From positions 1-64,000 of the forward strand of contig JALGVJ010000018.1 in NCBI GenBank assembly GCA_029838195.1: a stretch of 64,000 nucleotides of DNA, given 5' to 3'. A program made the position numbers and the translations under genes. The stretch's first letter is position 1; each line of letters starts with the position of its first letter. Shown here in pieces: positions 19,711 through 35,685 of this stretch. The DNA comes from Promethearchaeota archaeon (GTDB lineage: Archaea; Asgardarchaeota; Lokiarchaeia; Sigyniarchaeales; SOKP01). The notes below the pieces were generated by a model. It searched no databases. It saw only the letters and a program-made list of their open reading frames with translations, and was not told the DNA's origin.

Positions 19711-20502
19711 TCAAGCATGCTTTACTTGCTTTATTTTATTTAAAATTATATTTCCAATTAACTCTTCGGCCGTGGTTTTCCCCCTCCAGTTAGTAAATTC
19801 CGGAAAACATCCCACATCAACGATATAATACTCGTTGGTGTTTTCTTCTTTAACCAGATCTAAATGTCCAAAAGATAAATTATAAGAGGTTTTCCATAGT
19901 TTTATGATCTTTCGAACTTCCATATCGAGGGGTACTTGTTTCATGGGACCATGCTCATCTGACATGGGAGGTTTCTCTAAGAGACATGTCTCATCTTGAA
20001 TGAAATAAGCTAAATAATGCGTTCCTTTAATGAATTTTTGAAAGTAATAAATTTTATCAGAATTTAGTTTAAGCATTTCCTTATTTTTTATTAATTGAAT
20101 TCCCTTACTTCCCGAACTCATTAAAGGTTTTAAAATTATTGGAAAATCATTTTTATTTAATTTTTCCTCCATGACTTTCATGGTACCCATGTAGAAAGGA
20201 GGTGTATTGAGATTTAAGTTTTTAGCTAAATAATAAGCTTCAATTCTATCTCGATGTTTATATGCAATAGTAGGATCTGGGAAAACGGGAACATTAGCTT
20301 CTTCTAAATAAAAAGCAGCTTGGAGGAACAAGAAATTTTTCGATTTTAATATGATAAAATTGTTATCTTTTAGAGTAGAATTGATATTGAGTTTTTTTTC
20401 ATCTATTAGTTCGATGAAAAAGTCATGATTTTCCAGAAATTCTTTCAATTTCCAGCTAAAAGAACTTTTTTTAATTTTTTTTGTAAAAATTCCAATCCGC
20501 AT
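19711..20502 (-). CDS. ATP-grasp protein, divergent ITPK1-like
   Basis: PIILKP..SSGSKGI, YFQKFI, GHLDLV...YYIVDVGCFPEF. Confidence 0.68.
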   Translation of the reverse strand: MRIGIFTKKIKKSSFSWKLKEFLENHDFFIELIDEKKLNINSTLKDNNFIILKSKNFLFLQAAFYLEEANVPVFPDPTIAYKHRDRIEAYYLAKNLNLNTPPFYMGTMKVMEEKLNKNDFPIILKPLMSSGSKGIQLIKNKEMLKLNSDKIYYFQKFIKGTHYLAYFIQDETCLLEKPPMSDEHGPMKQVPLDMEVRKIIKLWKTSYNLSFGHLDLVKEENTNEYYIVDVGCFPEFTNWRGKTTAEELIGNIILNKIKQVKHA

Positions 20503-20525: not shown

Positions 20526-21344
20526 TCATATTTTAGCTTGATTAATTAAAAAATCGCCCACTAATTTTGGGCCTTCCTTCATGTAATTAAAATTTGGCGT
20601 GCTGTTGATATCTGTTAAATAAAATTTTCCGTCGTCAGACTTTAAATAATCTATTGAAGTTATTTTGAGATCCAGCGTTTTCATGGCTTTCAAGCTCATT
20701 TCTTTTAAAAAAGGGATTTCTTCTATTTTGACTCTACTTTTCATTTTGTCAGGTTCTATCAAAACAGGAATTTGCTTATAGAAAAATAATTCTTCATTAA
20801 TTCCATAAACTTTATATTCCCAATCACTTTTTATGAATTCTTGATAATAATAATGATTAATTTGGAAGTTTTCTTCGTTTGAATTTATTAATACTCTTTT
20901 ATCGATGACTTGAATTTTTCCATTCCTTATCCTTATTTCCGGTTTAAAATTAATGTTTTTTTGATCAATTGCATTTTTTATTATATAATTTTCGAAGGGC
21001 GGTGTTAAATGTTTGGAAGAATATCCATAATTTGGCACGAGAATTCCATTTTTACGAAGATATAAAGAATTTAAAAACCGATTCATGGCTAAATAGATTC
21101 CTTTATAAGAATTAAAAACAGGAATGGACGTTTCTCGTTCGATATATCTAACAAGGGCCAATGCTAAATTTCCTTTCGTCTTTACAAAAAAGACATCTTC
21201 GTCCAACCTTAAGTCATCGAGAGATAATAAAAAATCTTGCTCTACATAAAGAGTTACATGAGCTTTATCTTTTAAATAAGCAAGTAATTTCGCTAATTTA
21301 TACTTCAGATGATAGGTATCCGTGATAATTCCAATTCTTGGCAT
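20526..21344 (-). CDS. ATP-grasp protein, ITPK1-like inositol phosphate kinase candidate
   Basis: YQEFI...EYKVYG, SIDYL...FYLTDINSTPNF. Confidence 0.72.
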   Translation of the reverse strand: MPRIGIITDTYHLKYKLAKLLAYLKDKAHVTLYVEQDFLLSLDDLRLDEDVFFVKTKGNLALALVRYIERETSIPVFNSYKGIYLAMNRFLNSLYLRKNGILVPNYGYSSKHLTPPFENYIIKNAIDQKNINFKPEIRIRNGKIQVIDKRVLINSNEENFQINHYYYQEFIKSDWEYKVYGINEELFFYKQIPVLIEPDKMKSRVKIEEIPFLKEMSLKAMKTLDLKITSIDYLKSDDGKFYLTDINSTPNFNYMKEGPKLVGDFLINQAKI

Positions 21345-21786: not shown

Positions 21787-22704
21787 GTGAGAATGGCTAA
21801 AAATATTCTCAAGCGAATTTACATTGGCACGATCAACGAGCGTGATCCCGAGATCTTCAAGGAGATTAAAGATTTCTGCTTAACACATTATAATATAAAG
21901 TTTGTAAACCTTCTCGAGAAAAAAAAATTTTCCAAAAAATATTTCAAAAAAAAAATAAAAAAATATCCTATCTCATTTCTCATTGTAAAATTATATTCTA
22001 AAAATTCTAATGAAAAAATATATAACGCTCTTAACTCCTTAGCACCCAACATTCCTCTATTAAACAGCATTGAAGCAGTAAGGACATGCGAAAGTCGTAA
22101 AAAAACGTTCATGTTGATGCAAACAAGATGTAAGGAGATTAAAATCCCCGAATTTTATTCCACAAGAGATGAGGTTCTGGCTGCTCTCTCCAGTAATAAA
22201 AAAATCATTATTAAACTAGATTCTCATAATCCTGAACATGTAAAGAAGGAAGACAGAATTTTAGGGATCGTGTCCAATCAAAAAGAAATTTCTACTATTT
22301 TAAGCCAATACGATTTTGATGAGATCTTTTTTCAAGAATACATGGGAAAATTCGATATTATTTATAAAGTATACGTGATCAATAATTGGATCGTGTCCAT
22401 TACCTCCACCGACCGATTACAAGGCGATAAACATTTAAGCCCATTGGATTTAGTCCATCTTAGAGTGTCTATTGATGAAATGCTGAAAAATCACATTTTA
22501 AAAATAGGCAAGCAATTTAGGATGTCAATCTTTGGAATTGATTACGTTATAAAAAATAACGTGCCTTACATTATCGATATCAATGATTTTCCTAGTTTTA
22601 GAAGGATTCCTGAAGCTGTTAGCCTCATTTCTGATTACATGTATAATCTTTTAACTCTAAGAGAATACGCAGAACTCTTAAAAACGCACATAGCTACATA
22701 TTGA
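21787..22704 (+). CDS. ATP-grasp protein, ITPK1-like inositol phosphate kinase candidate
   Basis: FFQEY...YKVYVI and IFGIDYVI...IIDINDFPSF (ITPK1-type DIN.FP); adjacent to ino1. Confidence 0.8.
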   Translation: MRMAKNILKRIYIGTINERDPEIFKEIKDFCLTHYNIKFVNLLEKKKFSKKYFKKKIKKYPISFLIVKLYSKNSNEKIYNALNSLAPNIPLLNSIEAVRTCESRKKTFMLMQTRCKEIKIPEFYSTRDEVLAALSSNKKIIIKLDSHNPEHVKKEDRILGIVSNQKEISTILSQYDFDEIFFQEYMGKFDIIYKVYVINNWIVSITSTDRLQGDKHLSPLDLVHLRVSIDEMLKNHILKIGKQFRMSIFGIDYVIKNNVPYIIDINDFPSFRRIPEAVSLISDYMYNLLTLREYAELLKTHIATY

Positions 22705-22774: not shown

Positions 22775-23863
22775 TTATCTTTCTCTCTTTTTTTGAAGGA
22801 ATTCTATTAAATTCCTTTTAGCCGCCTCATCTTCTAACTGTTCGGGAGGATGTTTACAAAAAAAAGAACAAGCCGAATGTAAAATTCCGCCAATTTTTCT
22901 ATCTTTCGCAATTTTAGAAACGCGAATGCAATCTGCGATAATGCCTGCGGAATTGTTGCCATCTTCCACGAACATGGTGATATCAATCCTAACGGGCGCT
23001 CCTCCAAATATTTTACCTTCTAATCTCATGTAAGCTTCTTTTTGATTTTTTAAAAAAGGAATATAATCCACGGCAGATATTTGGCATTCTATTCTTTCCT
23101 TATTCGGTAACCTAGAAATGACGGATTCTGTTTTTGATTGCCGCTTTCCTTCTTCATATCGTAGCTTTCCATTTGGCATGGGCGTTAGTAAATTACAAAA
23201 ATCACTAGAACCTCCCCAATCTAATTGAATCGTGCGTTCTAAAACAGCACCTCTCAGCGGAAATAAATTGGCTAAGGATCTATGGATGATGGTAGCCCCT
23301 ATCTGAGATTTTACATCATCTCCTATTAGGGAAAGGTTTCGTTCTTCCGCTTTTTTAATGAGTTCTGGATCTTTTGCCACTGGGGTGGGCATGCCATTCA
23401 CAACACTAGCACTTGCTTCAAGAGCACATGTTACGTAATATTTCACCGCCCTATGTGAACCCGTTGGAAGTAAAATGACGACAACATCCACGTTTCTTTT
23501 CTTTAATTCATTAGTAATATCAGCTGGTTTTTGTTCCTCTGAAAAAGGGATAATGTTTTTAATGTTACTCGCTAATCCATCCAATATGGGTCCCTTAATG
23601 ACAGGCGCATCCAAAAAGCGGGGTCGAAATAATTCTATATTGCAATTGGGCTCTGTAAAAATCGCTTCACTTAAGTCTTTTCCGACTTTTTTAGCATTCA
23701 CGTCAATTCCTAATACAAAATTTATGTCCGTTATAGAGTAGTCTTTAATTTCGGGTAACACGCCAATGATTCGTTCTGGATGCTCTTTATAGTTTTCTAC
23801 GCCTTGAACTAGAGCGGAAGCAACATCTCCAACGCCGACAATACAAGTATTTATATTGGCCAT
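22775..23863 (-). CDS. ino1: myo-inositol-1(3)-phosphate synthase
   Basis: GVGDVASALVQG, LPTGS, GDDVKSQIGAT, SKT, NSAG and FCKHPP motifs. Confidence 0.93.
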   Translation of the reverse strand: MANINTCIVGVGDVASALVQGVENYKEHPERIIGVLPEIKDYSITDINFVLGIDVNAKKVGKDLSEAIFTEPNCNIELFRPRFLDAPVIKGPILDGLASNIKNIIPFSEEQKPADITNELKKRNVDVVVILLPTGSHRAVKYYVTCALEASASVVNGMPTPVAKDPELIKKAEERNLSLIGDDVKSQIGATIIHRSLANLFPLRGAVLERTIQLDWGGSSDFCNLLTPMPNGKLRYEEGKRQSKTESVISRLPNKERIECQISAVDYIPFLKNQKEAYMRLEGKIFGGAPVRIDITMFVEDGNNSAGIIADCIRVSKIAKDRKIGGILHSACSFFCKHPPEQLEDEAAKRNLIEFLQKKRER

Positions 23864-24238
23864 GATATTGAAGATAATAAAATGTTAATATTTAAATCAT
23901 TTTTGCTAATAGATTTGTTTATCTTGTTCATTTTTACTTAAACACCAGAAAAGATCATATTTAATTATCATATTTCATGAATGCATAAAATTTTCATGAT
24001 TTAAACGAGTATTTTTAAATAATAACCTCCCATAATTTAATAATGTTTTATTAATGGTAGATAATTTAAAATGGATTGATTTTAGATACAAGCATGGTTT
24101 GATTTAAAATGAATTTCTATTTTTCATTCTTAATTGTTCTACTTGCTTAATAATATTTAAAACTCTTTTAAAAAAATTTTAGTATTAAAAAGAATATTTC
24201 CTATCATTCAAAGGAGTTATAATACTTATATATTTATC

Positions 24239-27052
24239 ATGAGATTTGAAGATAAAAAAATCTATATTGCATTAAGTCCTCATATCAATTATTATCACTC
24301 ATACCGCGGTGATTCACGGGGAGTCACGGGATTTGGAAAAGATTTAGCTTTAATGAGAGGAATACTTGATAAATTAGATGAGATTGAAGACATGGGTTTT
24401 TCTTTTGGATCCATGAAAATTTCTTGGGATTACGCAGATCTTTTTTGGTCCATTCAATTACAAAAGGAGTATCAACAAGATGTTTTGGATCGCGTGAGAG
24501 AGAGATGCAAGCGAAAAAAAGATGAAGTACTCATTGGTTCTTGGGGAAATGTTGCTCAGCCCATTTTAGATACGGAAGCCTTAATTCAAGACCAAAAGTG
24601 GTTTCGAGAAAATTCCATGGGTATTGGTGTGGATCAATTATTTAAGGGGAGGGTGGCGCCTTACACAAGAACTCAAGAGACCATGTATACACAAGGCATG
24701 ATTGAAATATATAATAAATTGGGAATTGAAGGGATCTGCATCTATTATTCCGTATATCAATTTGACGTTGCCAGACCTTTTTTAAATCCTCGCTTAGATT
24801 GGAATCAACAATTTGGACCTGTTAAATTGAAATCCACCGTTTCTGATGCAACTTGTTTAATGATTCCCATGTATGGATTTGGAGATATATTAGACAATTG
24901 TTCTATCAAACGCTGGTTAAAAATAATTAGAAAAGCTCAGAAGAGAGGAGATATTAAGGGTCACGCTCTCCTTTTTTTAAATTTTGACATGGATTATGAC
25001 CTGTGGCTTTCCGTTCCCATGCCCTCCTTTCTCAAATGGATGCCAAATACTCGCGGCTTACTAGAATTTGCTGAAGTCGTGGACCAACTTGAGTACGTGG
25101 AATTTGCAAACCTTTTGGAAATCATTCCTAAATTAGAGGTTAGAGGCGAAACGATGCTACAACAAGATGTTGCAGATGGAAATTGGAATGGATTTTACAA
25201 TTGGGCACAAAAACATGATAACACGCGCTTTTGGACCGTTGGTCAATGGGCAAGATGGGTAAAATGCATAACTGATACATTAATTTCAACAAATCATGTA
25301 AAAGATAGGGTCGAACAAATAAATTCATTTTTGAGAGAAGGCACGGATCAATCAAATACTTACCTTAAAAACATGATTCTTTTTAGTTCTACGACGAATT
25401 TTGGATTATCCCTCCCATTTCAGCATCCTCATAGACAAAAAACAGCCATGAGTTATGGGTTAAATGCTTTAAGGGCTGCATTAAAAGCGATGAGGATCGC
25501 TAAAGAAAATTTAACTTCTCAAATTAAAAAGAATAATTTATTTACAAAACCGGGCATTTGGATTTTTCCCATTACCAATCGGGGTATTACACCAGAAGAG
25601 AATAAAAAGGTGGAATCTCCCATTTTAATACGAACTGAAATTCCTCTTGAATTCAAGGAGAATTTATTAGATAATAAAGATTTACTTTCCCATATCAGTT
25701 TCATGGAAGAGGGCGTGCGTCATGCATTTTATGAAGATCCGTTAAAATCAACTCTAATTCTCGAAGCCATCATTCCACCTGATAAATTTTCGGATGGAAA
25801 TTCTTATTATCTTCCTTTAACTTTCCGACAACAGGAGCCTCATGATTCTATTAAAAATGAGCTTCAAGCAACCAGAAGAATTTTAAAAAATAAGTATTTA
25901 ACCGTGGAATTTGATAAAAATGGAAAAATAAATTCTTTTAAACATAAAGGAAAAGAATTCGCTTGTCCAAAATTTTTAGATTCTGCAGTGGTTTTTGGCA
26001 CTCCAAAAAAAGCAAAACGATGTGAATCCATTAAAGATGAATTTTTGGTTCTAAGAACGGGGGAAGATAATTTTTCCGCTTCCATTAAGATTAAAAGCAC
26101 CTTCGAAATCTTGCCTGATGCTCACGTTCACGTGGAGAAAATCTGTACGATGTATGCCGATTTACCATGCTTATTTATCCAAGTTGAAATGAATCTCTGT
26201 GATATAAAAGGAGAGAAAAAAATAGAAGATGGAACCTCTTTTGTTGAGGAAGAATATAATAAGGGATGGTTAGAAATCATGCCTTGTGAAATCCGCCCCA
26301 ACATTCTTGGAAAAAACAAATTTTTGCGAATATGGAAACATAATTATTTTGGTCGGGTTTCATGGTTTGATTTAAACATGAAACAAATAGATCCTAAAAA
26401 TGCTAATATTGATTGCTTGGTATCAAATATCTCAGATGGCTGGATGGGGCTAACTAACGGGGAGAAAGGCTTGCTCGTGGGATATAATGGAGTAAAAGCG
26501 GCGAATTTTGCATTTACGCCCTTAAAATTGCGAGATAAGGGTTTTGGAGATTGTGCTCAAAAAGCCCAACAAGTTAGAATTAATCCTTTCGGGACGTATT
26601 ATGGAAAATCGCTACATTATTGGAGTAATGGAACGGGACACGCACAAAAACTTGTTCCCAAGCTCTTTACTACCTTAGATTCTTCCGCACCAACATTTAG
26701 CGGTAAAACTGTTTCTTTCGAGTTAGTACTCATTCCCTACATGGGAGACTTCCCTCCCTATGAATTTCAATCCTTCTTGAACCATTATTCTCTCCCTCCC
26801 TTGCTCTTGTACGTGGGTAAATATCAAGATGAAATTCAAGATAATTATTCTTACTTGGAATCCAAAGCAAGTTCATTAATTAAAGAATTTGATATTGAGG
26901 AACTCATGGAAATGGATTACATTGATTGGGTGAGAAAAATTAATGCTGATTTTGACACTGCACGAGAATTAAAATTTCCTAAGCAAGAAATGAAATTAGA
27001 TGTAAGTTCAGCGTTATTACTCCTCTTAGATGGAATTAGAGGAAAATCATGA
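24239..27052 (+). CDS. large putative glycoside hydrolase (GH38/GH57-like N-terminal barrel plus beta-supersandwich)
   Basis: N-terminal HINYYHSY, RTQE, NFDMD; later LKNKYLTVEFDKNGKINS typical of a GH38 C-terminal domain start. Confidence 0.55.
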   Translation: MRFEDKKIYIALSPHINYYHSYRGDSRGVTGFGKDLALMRGILDKLDEIEDMGFSFGSMKISWDYADLFWSIQLQKEYQQDVLDRVRERCKRKKDEVLIGSWGNVAQPILDTEALIQDQKWFRENSMGIGVDQLFKGRVAPYTRTQETMYTQGMIEIYNKLGIEGICIYYSVYQFDVARPFLNPRLDWNQQFGPVKLKSTVSDATCLMIPMYGFGDILDNCSIKRWLKIIRKAQKRGDIKGHALLFLNFDMDYDLWLSVPMPSFLKWMPNTRGLLEFAEVVDQLEYVEFANLLEIIPKLEVRGETMLQQDVADGNWNGFYNWAQKHDNTRFWTVGQWARWVKCITDTLISTNHVKDRVEQINSFLREGTDQSNTYLKNMILFSSTTNFGLSLPFQHPHRQKTAMSYGLNALRAALKAMRIAKENLTSQIKKNNLFTKPGIWIFPITNRGITPEENKKVESPILIRTEIPLEFKENLLDNKDLLSHISFMEEGVRHAFYEDPLKSTLILEAIIPPDKFSDGNSYYLPLTFRQQEPHDSIKNELQATRRILKNKYLTVEFDKNGKINSFKHKGKEFACPKFLDSAVVFGTPKKAKRCESIKDEFLVLRTGEDNFSASIKIKSTFEILPDAHVHVEKICTMYADLPCLFIQVEMNLCDIKGEKKIEDGTSFVEEEYNKGWLEIMPCEIRPNILGKNKFLRIWKHNYFGRVSWFDLNMKQIDPKNANIDCLVSNISDGWMGLTNGEKGLLVGYNGVKAANFAFTPLKLRDKGFGDCAQKAQQVRINPFGTYYGKSLHYWSNGTGHAQKLVPKLFTTLDSSAPTFSGKTVSFELVLIPYMGDFPPYEFQSFLNHYSLPPLLLYVGKYQDEIQDNYSYLESKASSLIKEFDIEELMEMDYIDWVRKINADFDTARELKFPKQEMKLDVSSALLLLLDGIRGKS

Positions 27053-27120
27053 AGTTTTCATTTCAATTTCAATTCAAAAATAGTTGCCTAATCTTAAATA
27101 AAAAAGAAAGGAGTAGGAAA

Positions 27121-28137
27121 ATGGAAGGAAAAATGAATGCTCTATTATTTCCCGAACCTTGGAAAGTAGAGCTGATTGAAGTGGACATCCCGAAATGCGG
27201 ACCATATGATGTATTGGCAGAAATCCATTCAGTTGGAATTTGTGGAAGTGATGTAGGAATTTTCGAAGGAGAACATTGGATTGTTGCTAGGGAACCAGGA
27301 GGACATGGGCATGAAACAGGAGCTCGCGCTGTAGAAGTGGGCAAAAATATTGAAGGGATTAACGAAGGCGATCATTTAGCTCGTATGGGACATGGATATG
27401 CTCAATATTCCACTCACGTGAATGTAATTGGTCATGGAAAAGATGAGAAAATGGGGGCATTACCTATCGTGCGAAATGACTTATCATTAGAAGAGATCTC
27501 CTTTGCTGATGCTGTTGGTTGTGCTATCAATTGTTTTGAACGGGCTGAATTCGATAGAATTGAAGGAGAAAAAAAAGCTATTGTTTTAGGCTTAGGTCCT
27601 ATAGGGTTAATTTTAACCCAAATTCTTCTCATGAATGGAATAGAAGTCGCAGCTTCAGAACTTTATCCCTTAAAAAGGAAATTAGCAAGGAAATGGGGTG
27701 CCAAGGTATATGATCCCAAAAAATACACGAGACCAACTCATGGTAATTTTACCGTGGTGGATCAGATTAAAAAAGAATTTGGTGAAGCTCACGCCGTTTT
27801 TGAAATGGTTGGAAGTAATGATACCCTACTACAAGCTATTGATTTAGTGCAACCAGGGTTTCGAGTAATGGTTTTTGGTGCTCAGAAAATGCAATATATT
27901 CCCTATGTAAATTGTAGAAAGAAAGGAGTTGAATTAGTATATCCGGAAGCCATGGTAAATTCTAAAGCGGACAAGGATTATTGGAACGATGCCCTAAACT
28001 TGATCGCCAGTAAAAAATTGGATTTAAAGAGCTTGATCACGAAGCGCATTACTTTGGAAGAAGCCGTTGATGCGTTCAAGTATTATGACCGAGAAAAATG
28101 GATTAAAATCATCATAGAGCCCTTTAGAACCCGATGA
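27121..28137 (+). CDS. zinc-dependent MDR alcohol/polyol dehydrogenase
   Basis: GICGSD, GHE and GLGPIG motifs; no structural-Zn Cys cluster; start chosen after AGGAG. Confidence 0.87.
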   Translation: MEGKMNALLFPEPWKVELIEVDIPKCGPYDVLAEIHSVGICGSDVGIFEGEHWIVAREPGGHGHETGARAVEVGKNIEGINEGDHLARMGHGYAQYSTHVNVIGHGKDEKMGALPIVRNDLSLEEISFADAVGCAINCFERAEFDRIEGEKKAIVLGLGPIGLILTQILLMNGIEVAASELYPLKRKLARKWGAKVYDPKKYTRPTHGNFTVVDQIKKEFGEAHAVFEMVGSNDTLLQAIDLVQPGFRVMVFGAQKMQYIPYVNCRKKGVELVYPEAMVNSKADKDYWNDALNLIASKKLDLKSLITKRITLEEAVDAFKYYDREKWIKIIIEPFRTR

Positions 28138-28288
28138 TTTTTCGCTTTTAATGATTATTTTACAAATCTAAGAAGAAAAGAGAAAAGAATAGGGATAATA
28201 TTCTTGCATGTTGATATATTTTTTAAAAAAGTTATTAAAATGCTGTAATAAAAAAATTAAAAAAATTTGGAATATATAGATTGTTATT

Positions 28289-29584
28289 TTATTCGATTTC
28301 ATAAGTTTCTTTCACAAATCTGAAGAAAATCGTAGATAGTATAAAGAATGCCGTTGAAGTTAAAAAGATCCACTGTAATCCAAATGATTGCGCAATTACC
28401 CCCGCAATTATGGCACCTATAATCTGAGGAACCGTGAATACTATATTCAATATTCCAAAAAACTTACCTCTTTGATCTTCTGGCAAGAGATCTTGGGACC
28501 ATGCGTTTAAAGGGGCTGGCATGCCAAGGAGAGCTACGAGAATAAAGGGCAGGGAGATAAAAAAGAGCAAGATATTAACCCCTGCATTTGTTGTTTTCAC
28601 GAATGATGCTGAAGCAACTCCGATGCTTATGATAATAATGATTAAGGGAGTATATTTTTTTCTCCCAAATCGATCGCTTATTTTTCCAAGTGTAACCGTT
28701 ATGAGAATGAGAAGCGGAAAACCAATAAGGATAGCTAATAAGAGCTGAAGAGTAGAAATGCCTAAAGAAAAGATATAAATGAAAAGAAAAGGCATGATAA
28801 CACCCACACCAGATTGGTAAATCATGTAAGCAAGAGTCATCTTAAAGAATTCTTTATGTTCTTTCATGGCTTGATAATCAAACATTCGGACAAAATCTTC
28901 CGTAAATTTTCTTTTTGGTGGCAACTCAGAAGGAGGTCGTTCTTTTATAAAAATAAAACCTAAAATGGCAGCAGCAATTAACATGATTCCGCCGAAAGAC
29001 AGGACAAATTGGTGCCCTTCTTGCGTCAAGATTTTTCCTTCTCCCGAAGGAGCAGGCACGGTGAACAATAAATCACTTATTAAAAAGAGAGCAACCCCAA
29101 TAAGCACGCCTAGATTTCCAATAGCCGTGATTATCCCGTTAGCTCGACCTCGATATTCGAGATCAATGGTATCAGGAATAACTGCCCTCTCGGCAGCAAA
29201 AAAAGCATTTGAGGAAATTCCTAATATCACTACATCAATGAAAAAGGCCCAAAAATAATTAGGGCTATATCCATAGAGGATTGCTGCTGCTCCCGTAATG
29301 ACACCACCGACTAATAAATATGGTCGTCTTCTCCCATGTTTTGATCTTGTATTATCAGAGAAAATGCCCCAAACAAGTAAGAAAATCAACCCCATCGTTG
29401 CTGAGAATGAAACCATCACGGACACATAAAGTTCTGAAAGTTGAAGCACGTGAGCGAGATAGGTATTAAAGAAATTTTGTTCTACAAAGCCATAGACTTG
29501 ATCCGCAGCAAAGACAATACCAATAATTATGGCTTCAAATAAAATGAATTTAGGAAGCTTGCCTGTTCGTAAATTTTCATTCAT
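28289..29584 (-). CDS. MFS (GPH-like) sugar transporter
   Basis: SDNTRSKHGRRRPYLL and SDRFGRKK motifs; about 12 TM. Confidence 0.9.
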   Translation of the reverse strand: MNENLRTGKLPKFILFEAIIIGIVFAADQVYGFVEQNFFNTYLAHVLQLSELYVSVMVSFSATMGLIFLLVWGIFSDNTRSKHGRRRPYLLVGGVITGAAAILYGYSPNYFWAFFIDVVILGISSNAFFAAERAVIPDTIDLEYRGRANGIITAIGNLGVLIGVALFLISDLLFTVPAPSGEGKILTQEGHQFVLSFGGIMLIAAAILGFIFIKERPPSELPPKRKFTEDFVRMFDYQAMKEHKEFFKMTLAYMIYQSGVGVIMPFLFIYIFSLGISTLQLLLAILIGFPLLILITVTLGKISDRFGRKKYTPLIIIIISIGVASASFVKTTNAGVNILLFFISLPFILVALLGMPAPLNAWSQDLLPEDQRGKFFGILNIVFTVPQIIGAIIAGVIAQSFGLQWIFLTSTAFFILSTIFFRFVKETYEIE

Positions 29585-29753
29585 TTTTCGTCAAATTATA
29601 AAATTTTATAAAATTAAATATGTTAAATGAAATTAAAGTTTCTTTATTAATAAAATGCTATGATATTTCATTAATAAGGAGTGGTATTAATGGGCAAAGA
29701 ATTTGGTCAATTTCCTCCGGCAATTGGGGCCACGAGAAAGATTTTACCATAAT

Positions 29754-30776
29754 TCAAGAGATTTTGTGCGAGGGGAGGGGGATTTGTATTATGAAATTGC
29801 TACCTTTTTCATGATTACCCTCAATTCTATTTTTTACGAAAATTTTTCCATGATAACTATCGATTATTTTTTTAACTAAGGATAACCCCAATCCCATTCC
29901 TCCCACGGATTTATCGTGAGCTGAGGTTCTTTTAAAAATTTCATTTTTTCTAGCATCTGAAATTCCTCGCGCATTATCAATGAATTGTAGTTGAAGAAAA
30001 TCGTTATTTTTTTCTTTTATCTTATCAACGTGGATGGTAATTTCAATTTCAGGATTAAGGTTATGTTTTATCGCATTAATGAGTAGATTTTCAAAGACAT
30101 CAAGGAGTAATTCATTTGCTAGGATAAAATACCTCGGTTCATTAGGGATAACTTTAATTTTTAAATTTTTATCAGAGAAATTGTTCTTAACATTAGAAAC
30201 GGCATCATTTAAGATTTGTAAGACTTCTAATTCATGAAGCGTGAATTTTCCATTCTCGATATTGGAAAGTGTTTGAACATTATGGATGAGAACGGTGGCT
30301 CTATCTATTTGATCTTTAAAAATATTTATTAACTCATCTAATTCATTTTTCTTATTTGGTTCTTTTTGATAAAGCTTAAAAAGTTCAAACGAACTCAACA
30401 TGCTCTGAAGTATATTATTCATATCGTGGGCGAATAAATCTTTATAGAAATTAAGCCTTTCATATGCATTTCTGTAATTGGCTTCAGATTCCTTGATTTT
30501 TTCCTCCATTTTTGGAATGAAAATCCAAAAAAATCCCATTACAGCACAGAAGATTTTAAACGTCTCCGAAACATCGTCAGCCGCTTTTATATCAATTAAC
30601 TCAAATTTTTCAAGGATATTTCCAATAGTAAATAAAAATCCGCCCATAAAAAGCAAGACTATGGTTAAAGAGCTGATGTCTTTTTTTTTAGAAAATTCCA
30701 TTATACTAATAATGAGACACCCTACGAAAAAGAACATGGCAATAATATTGAAAACCCCATCTATTACTTGTACCGT
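29754..30776 (-). CDS. membrane-bound sensor histidine kinase (start uncertain: ACG 30776 or ATG 30737)
   Basis: H-box FAHDMNNILQ, N-box ENLLINAIKH, DNARGI, GMGLGLSLVK; N-terminal TMs. Confidence 0.88.
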   Translation of the reverse strand, partial: TVQVIDGVFNIIAMFFFVGCLIISIMEFSKKKDISSLTIVLLFMGGFLFTIGNILEKFELIDIKAADDVSETFKIFCAVMGFFWIFIPKMEEKIKESEANYRNAYERLNFYKDLFAHDMNNILQSMLSSFELFKLYQKEPNKKNELDELINIFKDQIDRATVLIHNVQTLSNIENGKFTLHELEVLQILNDAVSNVKNNFSDKNLKIKVIPNEPRYFILANELLLDVFENLLINAIKHNLNPEIEITIHVDKIKEKNNDFLQLQFIDNARGISDARKNEIFKRTSAHDKSVGGMGLGLSLVKKIIDSYHGKIFVKNRIEGNHEKGSNFIIQIPLPSHKIS

Positions 30777-30779
30777 GGT

Positions 30780-31067
30780 TCACACCTCTCTTTCAATTTC
30801 TTCTTCTCGAGCATGGAAATGTCGATAGATCATTCCAATGAAAAATGAAAGTGCTGATAAGAGAATGGTTAGATGTTCGAAAAAATCAAATAAATCCGGA
30901 GCAAAAAAAGCCTCTAAATTTGTAAAAATAAAGGACATCACAATAAAAATAGCGCCGGGTAATAAAGGGAATATGTCCCTTCTTTTCTTTAAGATATAAC
31001 GAAAAAAAATAATCGGAATTAAAATAAAAATTAAAGCAAAAAATTCTAACATTTCAAACTCAGGCAA
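30780..31067 (-). CDS. small 3-TM membrane protein in frame with the downstream kinase
   Basis: Hydrophobic 95-aa ORF; its TGA is followed by an open in-frame stretch into the kinase. Confidence 0.7.
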   Translation of the reverse strand: MPEFEMLEFFALIFILIPIIFFRYILKKRRDIFPLLPGAIFIVMSFIFTNLEAFFAPDLFDFFEHLTILLSALSFFIGMIYRHFHAREEEIEREV

Positions 31068-31214
31068 GCAGCATTTTCACCTAATTTAAAAATAAATTAC
31101 TCCTTCTAGATTTTTGTTTTAATTATGATAATAAAGAATGGAGGATAATAAAAAAATCTTTTTTAATTCTTTCTTTTCATGGGTTTTCATTGGTAATCTC
31201 TTGATTGATAAGTG

Positions 31215-32516
31215 TTATTCATTTTTTAGGATCAAGGTTTCTTTCACGCGTAAAAATAACGGGATGGACCCAATGAGAAAAATTGGAACGAATAAAAAGA
31301 TATATTGGACTCCATAGGAATCCGCAATCAATCCTCCAATGAAAGCCCCGGGAATTTGAGAAATAGTATCCATGAAATTAAGAATGCCTGTGAATTTTCC
31401 ACGTTCATTTTCGGGCAATAAATCTTGCTGCCAAGTTAAAAGAGGGACCATGAGTCCCATTAATGCCACTAAGACCAAAATAAAAGAGACCACGTAAAAA
31501 ATGAAATTCATGGGAGTATTAGGCGAAATAAAGGGAAGTGTAAAAAATCCTGCGCTGGAAATGAGAATTAAAGGAGTAAGAAATCGTTTTCGACCATATT
31601 TATCCACGATTTTCCCGAGAAGATACATTACAAGTAAGGAAATGGGAATGATGATGCTAAAAATTAAAATCAATTGAATCGTTGGCAAGCCGAGATCGAA
31701 TATATAATTAAATACAAAAGGGAGAATGATTCGAATTCCAATATTAAAGACAAACATGGCAATTATAATGCGAAAAAAATGCTTATGTGCTTTCAATTCA
31801 GCATATTTCATGGTTTTTCTTAAATCTTCCAAGAAAGTTTTTTTAGGAGGCAATTCTGAGACGGGTTTTTCTTTGATGAAGAGGAATCCAATGATCGAAA
31901 CTAGTACCATCGTGAATCCACCAATGGCAAAGGAAAGGATATAACCTTCTTGCGTTATTAATGTACCTGACGCTGTTTGAATGGAATAATATTCATTTAC
32001 ATAAAGCGTTAGTCCCACTGGTATCATGGAGCCTAACAAGTTTGCAATTTGCGTAATTCCATTGGCTCTGCCTCGGTATTCCGTATCGAAGATGTCTGGA
32101 ATTAACACTTTTTGAGCAGCATAAAAGGAATTTGATGCGAGCCCAATTATAATTACATCTATGAAAAAACACCAAAAAAAATTAGGAGAAAAAGAATAAA
32201 GATACATGGCAAGGCCTCCAATTATTCCGCCGATAAGAAGATAAGGCCTTCTTCTTCCCCACCTACTTCTCGTGTTATCGCTTAGAGTTCCAAAAACAAT
32301 AAAAAACACGAATCCAGCAATCCCACTGAACGATACCATTATAGAGATGTAAATGTATTCTTTCTTTAGCACGTGCTCGATATATGTATTAAAGAGAGAG
32401 AATTCATAAAATCCAAAAATTGCCGCCGCCCCATAAATTAGAGCAATAATGATCATTTCGAAAAGCAGAAATTTTTCCTTTTCATGAGCTTCCTTATCAT
32501 TTAATTTTTTTTCCAT
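31215..32516 (-). CDS. MFS (GPH-like) sugar transporter, paralog of 28289-29584
   Basis: SDNTRSRWGRRRPYLL; shared EYRGRANGI and QDLLPE..RGKF motifs. Confidence 0.9.
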   Translation of the reverse strand: MEKKLNDKEAHEKEKFLLFEMIIIALIYGAAAIFGFYEFSLFNTYIEHVLKKEYIYISIMVSFSGIAGFVFFIVFGTLSDNTRSRWGRRRPYLLIGGIIGGLAMYLYSFSPNFFWCFFIDVIIIGLASNSFYAAQKVLIPDIFDTEYRGRANGITQIANLLGSMIPVGLTLYVNEYYSIQTASGTLITQEGYILSFAIGGFTMVLVSIIGFLFIKEKPVSELPPKKTFLEDLRKTMKYAELKAHKHFFRIIIAMFVFNIGIRIILPFVFNYIFDLGLPTIQLILIFSIIIPISLLVMYLLGKIVDKYGRKRFLTPLILISSAGFFTLPFISPNTPMNFIFYVVSFILVLVALMGLMVPLLTWQQDLLPENERGKFTGILNFMDTISQIPGAFIGGLIADSYGVQYIFLFVPIFLIGSIPLFLRVKETLILKNE

Positions 32517-32610
32517 GATCTAAATTTCATCCGAAATTATTTAAGTATTTTGAAGTTTTATTTTTGATTAGGAAATAATGTTCACGTTATTTAATTGATG
32601 GGGGACACAA

Positions 32611-33501
32611 ATGAAAAAAAAGATTTTATTTTCCGTGAAAAGAGATCATGAAATCCTTGATCGTGTTATAGAGGGATTGAATGCTATTTCTAATATCGAG
32701 CTTATTATTCATGATCCGACCAAGGAATATTTTAACATTACTCGCATGAGGACCATTTTAAGCAACTATGATTTCATTATCGTGAAGGTTGTGAATCAGA
32801 ATTCTTTAAACATGTTATATTTTGCCAAGCTCCATGGCATTCGCACGCTTCATGATTTAAATTCTGTTTTAATTTGTAAGAGCAAATTTATTTTAGACAT
32901 GTATTTAAGGAAGATTTTAGAGACTCATGCCCCTCAATTTGAAAACATTCATTTACCTACTGCTTGGAATCATAATCCCATAAATAAAACCGAATTTAGG
33001 GAGTGGATTATTGAGCATGTGCCCGTTGTTATTAAAAGTAACTATCAGTGTGACCCGTATAATAGGTTCAATTTTTTAGTGAGGAAAAAAGAAGAGATTG
33101 ATTACTTTTATGAACGCTATTCTTCTTTTATTACTAATGATGTATATCTCCAAAAATTTATTGAATGTGATGGGTATGACAGAAAAATTTATGTTATTGG
33201 AGAGGAAATCTTTGGAATAAAAAGAGAAAACCCAATTTATTTATTTCTGAGAGAACATCCCGAGAATATTGATGTAAATGAATTAAAAAGGGAACCCTAT
33301 TCCGTTCCAAGTAAAATAAAAGAATTTGCTAAGATTTTGGGAAAAGAGTTAAATTTAAAATTATTTGGTTTTGATTTGGTTCAAAAAGGCAAGGGAGAAT
33401 ATTATCTTTTAGATTTAAATGAATTTCCCGGATTTAAAGGGATCCAAAACGTTTCTACTAAGCTAATATCGTTTTTTAAAAACTTATTTTTCTCAGAATA
33501 A
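32611..33501 (+). CDS. ATP-grasp protein, ITPK1-like inositol phosphate kinase candidate
   Basis: YLQKFI..DGYDRKIYVIG and LFGFDLV...YLLDLNEFPGF. Confidence 0.78.
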   Translation: MKKKILFSVKRDHEILDRVIEGLNAISNIELIIHDPTKEYFNITRMRTILSNYDFIIVKVVNQNSLNMLYFAKLHGIRTLHDLNSVLICKSKFILDMYLRKILETHAPQFENIHLPTAWNHNPINKTEFREWIIEHVPVVIKSNYQCDPYNRFNFLVRKKEEIDYFYERYSSFITNDVYLQKFIECDGYDRKIYVIGEEIFGIKRENPIYLFLREHPENIDVNELKREPYSVPSKIKEFAKILGKELNLKLFGFDLVQKGKGEYYLLDLNEFPGFKGIQNVSTKLISFFKNLFFSE

Positions 33502-33514
33502 TTTCAGATTAATT

Positions 33515-34323
33515 TTATTGAAAAGCAGAAAAGATGTAAGAGGGGATTATCATGATAAAAGAAATCAATCCATATAAAATGCAGAAGTAATTAAAGGAGA
33601 GCTTTTTTACTAATTTTATTAAAATGCTCATCATGAGATATGCGCCTAGAAAGCTAAAACTCAAGGAAAGGAGGAGATTGAGAAGAGTTGAAATTTTAAA
33701 AACAGAGTTGTTTTTAAATAAGACTTCGAGAAGTAAGGATATTATAAAAAATGGGATATACATGATAAAACTTAATTTTAAAGCAGTTTCTTTATCATTA
33801 TTTTCTAATAAATGAATGGAAACCGTCAAGGCAGGACGAGAAACTCCCGGAAGTATCGCCAGTCCTTGCATTAATCCGGATAAAAAGGCAGATGTTCTAA
33901 GTTCCTTATTAGATAAATTTTCGAAATCATTTGTTCCAAAAATTCTATTAATGCGAATTAATAATATTCCTGCTCCAAATAAAATGCCTCTATATAAACG
34001 TGTTGAAACAAGTAATAGAAAGGAAAAATCGTGAGGAGTGTGCCCATGCTGCTAAAAATTAACCAATTTCTTCTATTAATATCCACCCGATCACTTTCAT
34101 TCCCTAATGAATTTAGTATGTTTAAAATCCTCGCAAATTCTGACCGAAATTTAATAATTATAGCCAGAAAAGAACCAAGTTGGAACCAGAATACACCTTG
34201 AATCTCATTATTAGGGTTTAAATTTAAATTTTTTGAGATCATGGCCATGACTTGCCCAAATGGAGAGATGGGGAGCATTTCCAGAATTCCAAATAAAAAA
34301 GCAAGGATGATGATTTCAATCAT
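33515..34323 (-). pseudogene. frameshifted BacA/UppP-like polyprenyl-diphosphate phosphatase
   Basis: N fragment GILEMLPISPFGQ and C fragment QGLAILPGVSR lie in different frames; shift near 33960-34030. Confidence 0.78.
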
Positions 34324-34386
34324 TGAATTAAAATTATTTTTTCAATAAATCGACATTTTTTTTAAATTAAAGAATTTAAAAGGAAA

Positions 34387-34860
34387 TTAAAAATATCGTT
34401 GCAATCCCTTCATGACGCAACGTTTAATTTCATCGCGCGCGATTCTAAATCCCTCTAAGCCCTTCATGGAGGGATCTTCAATATTTCCCGTTTCCCCCGC
34501 AAATTCTCGTAAAGTAAGAATGACCTTATCATTCGATTTCAAGCATTTTAACACTTCTTTTTTATGCGTTTCGGTTAAAGTGATGATTAAATCTGCTTGT
34601 TCAAGGTAATTAGGATGTTTTTTTAGATCTATAGATAAGGCATCTTCTCTCAAATGAATGTTGTCTTCTTTCATGGCTAAACGTGCATCCAGAGAAATGA
34701 GCATGCCATCTCTCGCATTAGAGGCGATTCCACCGGAACAAATTTTAACATCCATGCCTTTACTTGAAAAGAAATCTTTTAAATACCCTTCTACCATGCG
34801 GCTTCGTGCTGTATTAACGCTACAAGCAATGACAATATTTTTATAGGGAAATTTATTCAT
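34387..34860 (-). CDS. low-molecular-weight protein phosphatase family
   Basis: P-loop CSVNTARS (CX5R), ADLIITL, IEDP. Confidence 0.88.
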   Translation of the reverse strand: MNKFPYKNIVIACSVNTARSRMVEGYLKDFFSSKGMDVKICSGGIASNARDGMLISLDARLAMKEDNIHLREDALSIDLKKHPNYLEQADLIITLTETHKKEVLKCLKSNDKVILTLREFAGETGNIEDPSMKGLEGFRIARDEIKRCVMKGLQRYF

Positions 34861-34992: not shown

Positions 34993-35685
34993 TTAGAAAA
35001 AACTCTCTTTTTTAGCAAAATGGATGCCCCGTGAGCTCATGGCTTCTAATGCGTTTGAAATGTTATTTTCAGGTTGATCTATGCCCCGCGTTAAATCTAT
35101 TAAAAACACCACGTCAAATCCAAAACTCACCCCGTCCATTGCGGTAAAATAACAACAATAGTCTAATGCCAACCCGCACACGAATATTCTTTTAATTTTA
35201 AGAGATTTTAGATATCCGGCAAGCCCAGTTTCAGTTTTTTTATCATTTTCTAAAAAACCTGAATAACTATCTACTTTTGGATTATATCCTTTTCTAATAA
35301 TAGCATGTGCGAGAGTTTTATCGAGTGTTTCATGAAACTCTGCGCCTAGAGTTCCTTGAAGGCAATGATCAGGCCATAATATAGGGCCGATGGCTCCATC
35401 TTGAAATTCATCTCCCGGTTTTTTACCAGGATGGTTGCTAGCAAATGATAAATGATTTTTTGGATGCCAATCTTGAGTAAAAACGATAATACCTTTTTCT
35501 TTTTTAAATTTTTCTCCGAGTTCATTAATTGGAACAACAATCTGATCCCCTCCTTCTACGGGAAGAGCGCCTCCGGGAATAAAATCATTTTGCATGTCTA
35601 CTATTATTAAGGCATCCTCTTTCGAAATTTTTATTTCTGGAATGATGTCTAAATCTTTAATTTTCATTGCCATCCTTTTTAACAT
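34993..35685 (-). CDS. pncA: nicotinamidase/pyrazinamidase
   Basis: VDMQNDFIPGGAL, QDWHP, WPDHC, DSYSGF and GLALDYC motifs. Confidence 0.94.
   Translation of the reverse strand: MLKRMAMKIKDLDIIPEIKISKEDALIIVDMQNDFIPGGALPVEGGDQIVVPINELGEKFKKEKGIIVFTQDWHPKNHLSFASNHPGKKPGDEFQDGAIGPILWPDHCLQGTLGAEFHETLDKTLAHAIIRKGYNPKVDSYSGFLENDKKTETGLAGYLKSLKIKRIFVCGLALDYCCYFTAMDGVSFGFDVVFLIDLTRGIDQPENNISNALEAMSSRGIHFAKKESFF

Follow-up and report, generated by a model that had tools for sequence, protein, structure and literature searches.

The window analysed here (a stretch of 64,000 nucleotides, positions 1 to 64,000 of contig JALGVJ010000018.1 in assembly GCA_029838195.1, from a Promethearchaeota archaeon of the Lokiarchaeia) contains the gene for myo-inositol-1-phosphate synthase (ino1) among four genes for ITPK1-like ATP-grasp kinases (K1 to K4), with a set of sugar-related genes lying between ino1 and K4. 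We propose that this region is probably three juxtaposed units and not one system, with an accessory cassette for glycoside uptake and catabolism lodged inside the ino1-kinase cluster. The first unit would be the published Lokiarchaeal cluster, formed by ino1 with the ITPK1-like K1-K3 and K4; the second would be the accessory cassette, which fills the divergent gap from ino1 to K4; and the third, comprising a frameshifted UppP gene and the genes for a YwlE-like low-molecular-weight protein tyrosine phosphatase (LMW-PTP) and an isochorismatase, would be kept downstream by inherited gene order. A first-pass annotation had read the region instead as one regulated system that releases, imports, oxidises and senses an inositol glycoside or related polyol and feeds or balances the inositol phosphate (InsP) kinases. 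Every gene named in that annotation is confirmed at its given place by the open reading frame (ORF) listing and by Pfam and NCBIfam scans, which covered the 20 ORFs of at least 100 aa between 15098 and 38316. A literature search returned no description of genes inserted between ino1 and K4.

The gene order K1-K2-K3-ino1, followed by the genes for a 937-aa protein, a Zn-dependent dehydrogenase and a major facilitator superfamily (MFS) transporter, and then by K4-BacA-LMW-PTP-isochorismatase, is found again in at least a dozen related metagenome-assembled genomes (MAGs), and given this recurrence the arrangement is far from chance. The content of the ino1-K4 gap is variable. Among about 75 loci compared, which include K4 neighbourhoods from 50 further genomes of the same family and come from mutually related MAGs, so that the counts are not independent events, the gap is empty in 11 and holds only an MFS gene in 14, four of which bear deletion scars. 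Ten loci have a gene for an 811-aa GH36-like protein, alone or with an MFS gene, and two have an MFS gene, a GH2 gene and a URO-D-like gene; the 937-aa cassette occupies the gap in about 16 loci, partly selected for having it. In the scar of locus L075 (10667-10959), the 937-aa protein is reduced to its residues 1-79, which run into the dehydrogenase C-terminus (residues 330-356) as a fusion, L108 and L112 retain only the dehydrogenase C-terminus, and L014 retains only an N-terminal remnant of the dehydrogenase. These contents are best explained if the cassette occupies a variable slot of the ino1/ITPK1-like cluster, where it has repeatedly been lost and replaced. Comparison of the intergenic regions across the island turned up only AT-rich 11-13-mers and no non-trivial shared motif, and thus no evidence of a common operator.

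The cassette and the cluster also occur apart. The 937-aa gene is present in 13 of the 68 genomes of the family, whereas K4 is present in 61, and in a distant, Heimdall-like Asgard family (f24) 7 of 21 genomes have the 937-aa gene and none has K4. L. ossiferum carries the 937-aa gene and the dehydrogenase gene with no ino1 or K4 within 10 kb, and in a sister family (f2) the cassette and a K4-like gene lie on separate contigs. At five further loci (L003, L006, L009, L013 and L016) the cassette is found without K1-K3 or ino1, with K4 after the cassette in the two that reach far enough. Upstream of the cluster, the order of genes for a proteasome subunit, an unknown protein, a radical-SAM enzyme and FKBP is also kept in relatives, and since these unrelated genes keep their order, the shared position of the cassette can be attributed to descent. 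The proposal that the module is part of the ino1/InsP kinase system is therefore not supported: the module is absent from most relatives that keep ino1 and K1-K4, which have scars or other glycosidases in its place, and is unlinked to ino1 and K4 in L. ossiferum, f2 and f24. The alternative named in the first-pass annotation, an unrelated sugar-catabolic insertion, fits better, given the independent gain and loss.

The genes that surround the slot are those of a known cluster. K1 (19711-20502, minus strand), K2 (20526-21344, minus strand) and K3 (21787-22704, plus strand) give weak PF05770 matches, and K4 (32611-33501, plus strand), the fourth ITPK1-like kinase gene and the right edge of the slot, matches PF05770 at 46.6 bits; K1 and K2 match this family more weakly than K3 and K4. 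All PF05770-like genes of the source genome are located inside the window, and ino1 (22775-23863, minus strand; PF01658 at 73 bits and TIGR03450 at 297 bits, below the equivalog cut-off) stands between them. Its orthologues in relatives are 72-80% identical, and the K1-K3 order beside it is conserved there. The ITPK1-like kinase genes LcIKA-D of Lokiarchaeum flank genes for inositol phosphate synthase (IPS), and a functional link between them has already been argued (Desfougeres et al., 2019, PNAS, PMC6900528); K1-K3, ino1 and K4 are this published cluster. The cluster is adjoined at L015 and L127 by ino1-like genes in tandem, two or three in number, with 72%, 38% and 32% identity to the ino1 of the window, and they recall the two IPS genes reported for Lokiarchaeum (PMC6900528). 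Among the other families searched, K4 gave matches only in the sister family f2 (2 of 7 genomes), and these were weak. A distant K4-like ATP-grasp gene (26-31% identity) adjoins FKBP in G237 (locus L142, sister family), with the proteasome and unknown genes nearby, and in G165 (sister family) a K4 match of 20% identity was found on the same contig by genome search, where tblastn gave none in L141. FKBP and K4 may therefore have been neighbours before ino1 and K1-K3 came to the locus.

The largest gene of the cassette, a 937-aa ORF (24239-27052, plus strand), is without a Pfam, NCBIfam or PDB sequence match, and is glycosidase-like by predicted fold. About 140 full-length homologues (45-82% identity) are found in Asgard archaea, nearly all named 'hypothetical', and more distant ones (25-30% identity) in bacteria, namely (gut) Clostridia, Spirochaetes, SAR324 and Nitrospirales; when 1.84 billion representatives were searched with a profile, the family came to 449 representatives at 50% identity. 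No Pfam family is matched at E <= 0.01, and thus neither PF03065 nor PF01074; the best distant member of the family reaches 20.2 bits against PF03065, where the cut-off is 21.2. Searched against PDB chains, both the sequence and its 33-sequence profile gave matches at chance level only. The AlphaFold2 model built from these 33 sequences (pLDDT 86, pTM 0.90) aligns in Foldseek over its full length, about 976 alignment columns, with the bacterial GH38 alpha-mannosidase 2wyh (E 2e-21), and with the GH57 4-alpha-glucanotransferase 1k1x (E 3e-15). The VIA structure search, a method that does not depend on Foldseek, matches the model to the GH57 structures 1k1w (Z 21.0), 7e1y (Z 20.3, 3.6 Å over 362 residues) and 9jlr (Z 18.4, 3.4 Å over 320 residues) and to the GH38 structures 7dd9 (Z 19.4, 638 residues aligned) and 2wyh (Z 18.4, 670 residues aligned), and pairs residues 540-860 with mutarotase-like beta-sandwiches. 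The closest named ESM Atlas clusters carry PF03065 and PF01074. The model thus has in common with GH57 and GH38 enzymes a (beta/alpha)7 barrel whose strand 4 ends in a Glu, a helical bundle after the barrel and, at the C-terminus, a mutarotase-like beta-sandwich, whereas the sequence identity to both is about 10%. At the end of strand 1 the protein has SPHINYYH, in contrast to the HFHQP of canonical Asgard GH57. GH38 enzymes have a Zn site formed by His, Asp, Asp and His and an Asp nucleophile, features of which the 937-aa protein gives no evidence; the first-strand motif of GH38 is H-x-D, and the 937-aa protein has H-I-N there.

Candidate catalytic residues can be assigned with some caution. 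In an hhalign comparison of the 937-aa profile with a reference of 13 canonical Asgard GH57 sequences, which gave a weak match (7% probability, E 0.005), the invariant E147 falls on the GH57 nucleophile, the likewise invariant E126, and D219 on the acid/base D217. In place of D219, the acid/base could be D250/D252, two invariant residues that end a later strand. The sequence has neither a signal peptide nor a transmembrane (TM) segment. Taken together with the model, this suggests a glycosidase located in the cytoplasm and probably of the retaining kind, from a family matched by no Pfam or NCBIfam model, and the earlier description of the gene as glycosidase-like is supported by the predicted GH57-like barrel and GH38-like build. 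The neighbours of the bacterial homologues belong to sugar metabolism and encode a GPH symporter, a TIM-barrel protein like sugar-phosphate isomerases, a HAD protein of the Cof type and a fucose-isomerase-like protein. At locus L027, where ino1 is not nearby, GH2, URO-D-like, 937-aa, dehydrogenase and MFS genes are clustered. The URO-D-like (PF01208) gene accompanies MFS, GH2 and/or 937-aa genes at L027, L038, L039, L079 and L109, and the lineages with such a gene beside glycosidase genes include a Heimdall-like one.

Directly downstream and on the same strand lies the gene for a Zn-dependent medium-chain dehydrogenase/reductase (MDR). Its ORF opens at 27049, and the homologues and the called 338-aa product begin at M25, which makes 27121 the most likely start (27121-28137, plus strand); with this start, there is no overlap with the 937-aa gene. 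The protein scores above the cut-offs for PF08240, PF00107 and PF16912, and its GICGSD and GHGHE motifs align with the Zn ligands of threonine dehydrogenase 3gfb. It has thus kept the catalytic Zn site (Cys and His-Glu), and the structural Zn lobe is absent. All scores against NCBIfam equivalogs are far below cut-off, including those for Tdh (83.3 bits, cut-off 380) and IolM (NF041097; 79.3 bits, cut-off 450). Orthologues occur in 14 of 301 sampled Asgard genomes, and all 14 also carry the 937-aa gene, almost always adjacent, which bears out the proposal that the two genes form a unit. Between lineages whose 937-aa proteins share only 45-59% identity, the partner dehydrogenases share 72-84%, a conservation that points to unusually strong constraint for an accessory enzyme.

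Two paralogous MFS genes, MFS_a (28289-29584, minus strand) and MFS_b (31215-32516, minus strand), flank a membrane histidine kinase gene as had been proposed, and are 47% identical to each other. MFS_a, which matches both PF07690 and PF13347 and contains the motif SDNTRSxxGRRRPY, is a putative symporter resembling the GPH and sucrose transporters and the closer counterpart of the single MFS protein of relatives; its sole PDB sequence match is the plant sucrose transporter SUC1 (E 5e-5). The MFS genes score above cut-off for PF07690 and PF13347 and have the GRRRPY motif, and fall below the cut-offs of the family models TIGR00792 (36-47 bits, cut-off 231) and TIGR01301 (about 24 bits, cut-off 511). 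Members of the MFS_a cluster adjoin 937-aa homologues in 35 loci, eight of them bacterial, so that the association of the 937-aa gene with a glycoside-type MFS transporter holds in archaea as well as in bacteria.

These features outline a possible pathway. A sucrose-transporter-like MFS symporter would import a small glycoside, which the cytoplasmic 937-aa enzyme would cleave, with E147 as candidate nucleophile and D250/D252 or D219 as candidate acid/base; the Zn MDR dehydrogenase would then oxidise the freed sugar or polyol with NAD(P)+. The substrate is presumably an alpha-glycoside, possibly a galactoside. The part of the first-pass annotation stating that the module imports, releases and oxidises a glycoside is reasonable, given the 14/14 co-occurrence of the dehydrogenase, the MFS adjacency, the glycosidase-like fold and the presence of kinase homologues beside a glycosidase gene; the part that made these steps feed the InsP kinases, as members of one system with ino1, is not upheld.

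The histidine kinase (29754-30737, minus strand) has about three TM segments, a HATPase_c domain (PF02518, 66.9 bits), a HisKA match just below cut-off (PF00512, 24.4 bits, cut-off 26.9) and the H box FAHDMNN; by sequence it is without an extracytoplasmic sensor domain. Directly upstream is a 95-aa ORF with three TM segments and no Pfam match (30780-31067, minus strand), which in the window is in frame with the kinase and separated from it by one TGA and 14 codons. Its 91-aa counterpart in the closest relative, L021 (12690-12965, minus strand), is also a separate ORF. A histidine kinase and a second MFS gene are found at this position in just the window and L021, and tandem MFS pairs without a kinase occur at L015 and L127. 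Kinase homologues (43-45% identity) adjoin GH36-like genes in G183, a genome of another genus. The second MFS, the histidine kinase and the small membrane protein may together constitute a transporter-coupled regulatory add-on of a kind similar to UhpB/UhpC.

The alternative occupant of the slot, an 811-aa protein (for example L082:5486-7924, plus strand; also at L077, L078, L084, L085, L118, L123, L130 and L132), belongs to an Asgard-wide 'hypothetical' family of about 100 homologues with a long N-terminal helix and has no Pfam match. Its model (pLDDT 90.6) finds its best structural match in 7exf, an alkaline alpha-galactosidase of GH36 from Arabidopsis (E 2e-27, TM-scores 0.61/0.68, full length); compared with the plant alkaline alpha-galactosidase/raffinose-synthase (SIP) enzymes, the likeness is structural and full length and the sequence identity is about 11%. 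In one genus the ino1-K4 slot holds the 811-aa gene instead of the 937-aa gene; other genera carry the 811-aa gene elsewhere, and no GH36-like gene located outside the slot has ino1 in its vicinity. The 811-aa gene was not found in the genome of the window (96.6% complete). A paralogous relationship of the two proteins was considered and rejected, as hhalign of the 937-aa profile against the GH36-like protein gave no relation, and judging from this comparison the two slot occupants are analogues.

Several observations weigh against the proposed three-unit organization. The cassette stayed in the ino1-K4 gap throughout the diversification of the family, and a second type of glycosidase is found in the same place; this other glycosidase is similar to alkaline alpha-galactosidases of plants, whose ligands include the galactosyl-inositol galactinol (7exh was solved with galactinol), and a common inositol-glycoside theme would account for the successive occupants. 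The pairing of E147 with the GH57 nucleophile depends on an hhalign match of just 7% probability, and the many invariant Arg and Lys residues of the 937-aa family, such as R23, R89, R144, K325, R339, R399 and R780, could indicate an anionic substrate. No response regulator is present among the neighbouring ORFs scanned, and the genome was not searched for one. The first of these points could be taken further, in that the MFS protein might import a galactinol-like glycosyl-inositol from which the 937-aa or GH36-like enzyme frees myo-inositol for the dehydrogenase and the kinases, alongside ino1. We regard such salvage as unlikely. It would fit the position of the cassette, which in many genomes lies in the divergent promoter region separating ino1 from K4, and the structural homology of the alternative occupant to the plant GH36 enzyme (best match 7exf), but gains and losses of the cassette are independent of those of the ino1/kinase genes, and the 937-aa and GH36-like families lie near ino1 solely in one archaeal family, where synteny extends over the entire neighbourhood. 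There are MDR enzymes that act on inososes, though the IolM match is only 79 bits here, far below the cut-off, and the dehydrogenase scores as well against Tdh. The island has no iol genes, and among the Pfam and NCBIfam matches of the 20 ORFs scanned none is of the IolG, IolE, IolD, IolB or IolC type; no GT8 galactinol-synthase-like gene was found in the source genome at its 96.6% completeness. Furthermore, ITPK1 uses InsP1, not free inositol, so that a missing inositol kinase would be required. The broader idea that the successive occupants of the slot are galactinol-like glycosyl-inositol salvage modules, coupling external inositol glycosides to the ITPK1-type pathway, seems to us quite improbable; if it were true, archaea would have in these modules an equivalent of the galactinol and raffinose metabolism of plants.

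The fold of the 937-aa protein allows two other explanations. Its best barrel matches are a GH57 4-alpha-glucanotransferase, amylopullulanases and AmyC, and the protein is predicted to be cytoplasmic, which would suit a diverged enzyme of the GH57 type (amylase, glucanotransferase or branching enzyme) with an intracellular glycogen-like storage polymer as substrate and incidental neighbours. This is very unlikely in our view: the genomes already hold two to five canonical PF03065 matches each, the steady partners of the 937-aa gene are a glycoside-type MFS gene and the dehydrogenase gene and not glycogen genes, and the family neither conserves the GH57 motifs as such nor matches PF03065. Retaining GH57 and GH36 relatives also include transglycosylases, such as 4-alpha-glucanotransferase and raffinose synthase, and with ino1 adjoining, the 937-aa protein could be imagined to make a glycosyl-inositol or related compatible solute from the ino1 product, for the MFS protein to export or recapture. 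Such a biosynthetic role we consider scarcely credible, as the cassette is independent of the ino1/kinase genes here no less than in the case of salvage, has no gene for an inositol-phosphate phosphatase or a nucleotide-sugar enzyme, and belongs to a family whose bacterial contexts look catabolic. An accessory cassette for glycoside uptake and catabolism, next to but separate from the inositol-phosphate genes, therefore remains our preferred reading.

Downstream of K4, the BacA-like gene and the CX5R phosphatase gene of the first-pass annotation are both present, the former frameshifted and not a single intact gene. This gene for a BacA/UppP-type polyprenyl-diphosphate phosphatase (33515-34323, minus strand) is split by a change of frame near 33990, so that the N-terminal and C-terminal halves of PF02673 fall in separate ORFs (33958-34323 and 33515-33871). 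Relatives carry a single intact gene of about 282 aa, and the frameshift is either a pseudogene mutation or an assembly error; contigs of four public DNA runs, compared over 33400-34450, gave no bridge across the shift. The LMW-PTP-fold phosphatase (34387-34860, minus strand; PF01451, 52.3 bits) has intact CX5R(S) and DP motifs, and its C-S-V-N-T-A-R-S and E-D-P align with those of the Bacillus subtilis arginine phosphatase YwlE, its closest solved relative (E 6e-10). Orthologues are found in 51 of the 68 family genomes and weaker homologues in one other family; the orthologue is family-specific, located elsewhere in one genus (g4), and was not found in three other genera, two of which have K4. 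The enzyme was considered as an InsP phosphatase and this assignment was dropped; its distribution speaks neither for nor against it. The gene for the isochorismatase-family hydrolase (34993-35685, minus strand; PF00857, 83 bits) is a downstream neighbour whose position is conserved among relatives. BacA and the CX5R phosphatase are tied to K4 by conserved gene order only.

The Lokiarchaeal ino1 and ITPK1-like cluster has been used as an argument that inositol-phosphate signalling is older than eukaryotes, and genes inside this cluster should not be counted in the pathway by position alone. The locus is also of interest for a large glycosidase family that is still uncharacterised (about 450 clusters at 50% identity), which is found in Asgard archaea and bacteria and is accompanied in Lokiarchaeia by a highly conserved dehydrogenase found nowhere else in the genomes sampled, and for a gene slot in which different glycosidases substitute for each other. 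If the substrate were an inositol glycoside, the locus would link nutrient uptake with Asgard inositol-phosphate synthesis.

The organization of the region can be compared with three known systems. With the LcIKA-D/IPS locus of Lokiarchaeum it has in common ino1 (IPS) with flanking ITPK1-like ATP-grasp kinases; the genes between IPS and the fourth kinase are not discussed in the portion of that report that was searched, in which the words 'operon', 'cluster' and 'genomic' are absent (PMC6900528). The cassette resembles operons of the melAB type in combining a GPH/SUT-type symporter with a cytoplasmic, retaining alpha-glycosidase-like enzyme, and in being accessory and patchy in distribution, but the 937-aa protein is of an unassigned glycosidase family and in Lokiarchaeia is accompanied by a Zn MDR dehydrogenase. 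In the Escherichia coli UhpABC/UhpT system, which senses sugar phosphates, paralogous MFS proteins are encoded beside a membrane kinase that has no ligand-binding domain of its own. The histidine kinase of the window likewise has two MFS paralogues adjoining it and no ligand-binding domain, which suggests that one of the two transporters may act as its co-sensor. Unlike UhpABC/UhpT, the arrangement has no adjacent response regulator, involves another type of MFS protein and is restricted to this genus.

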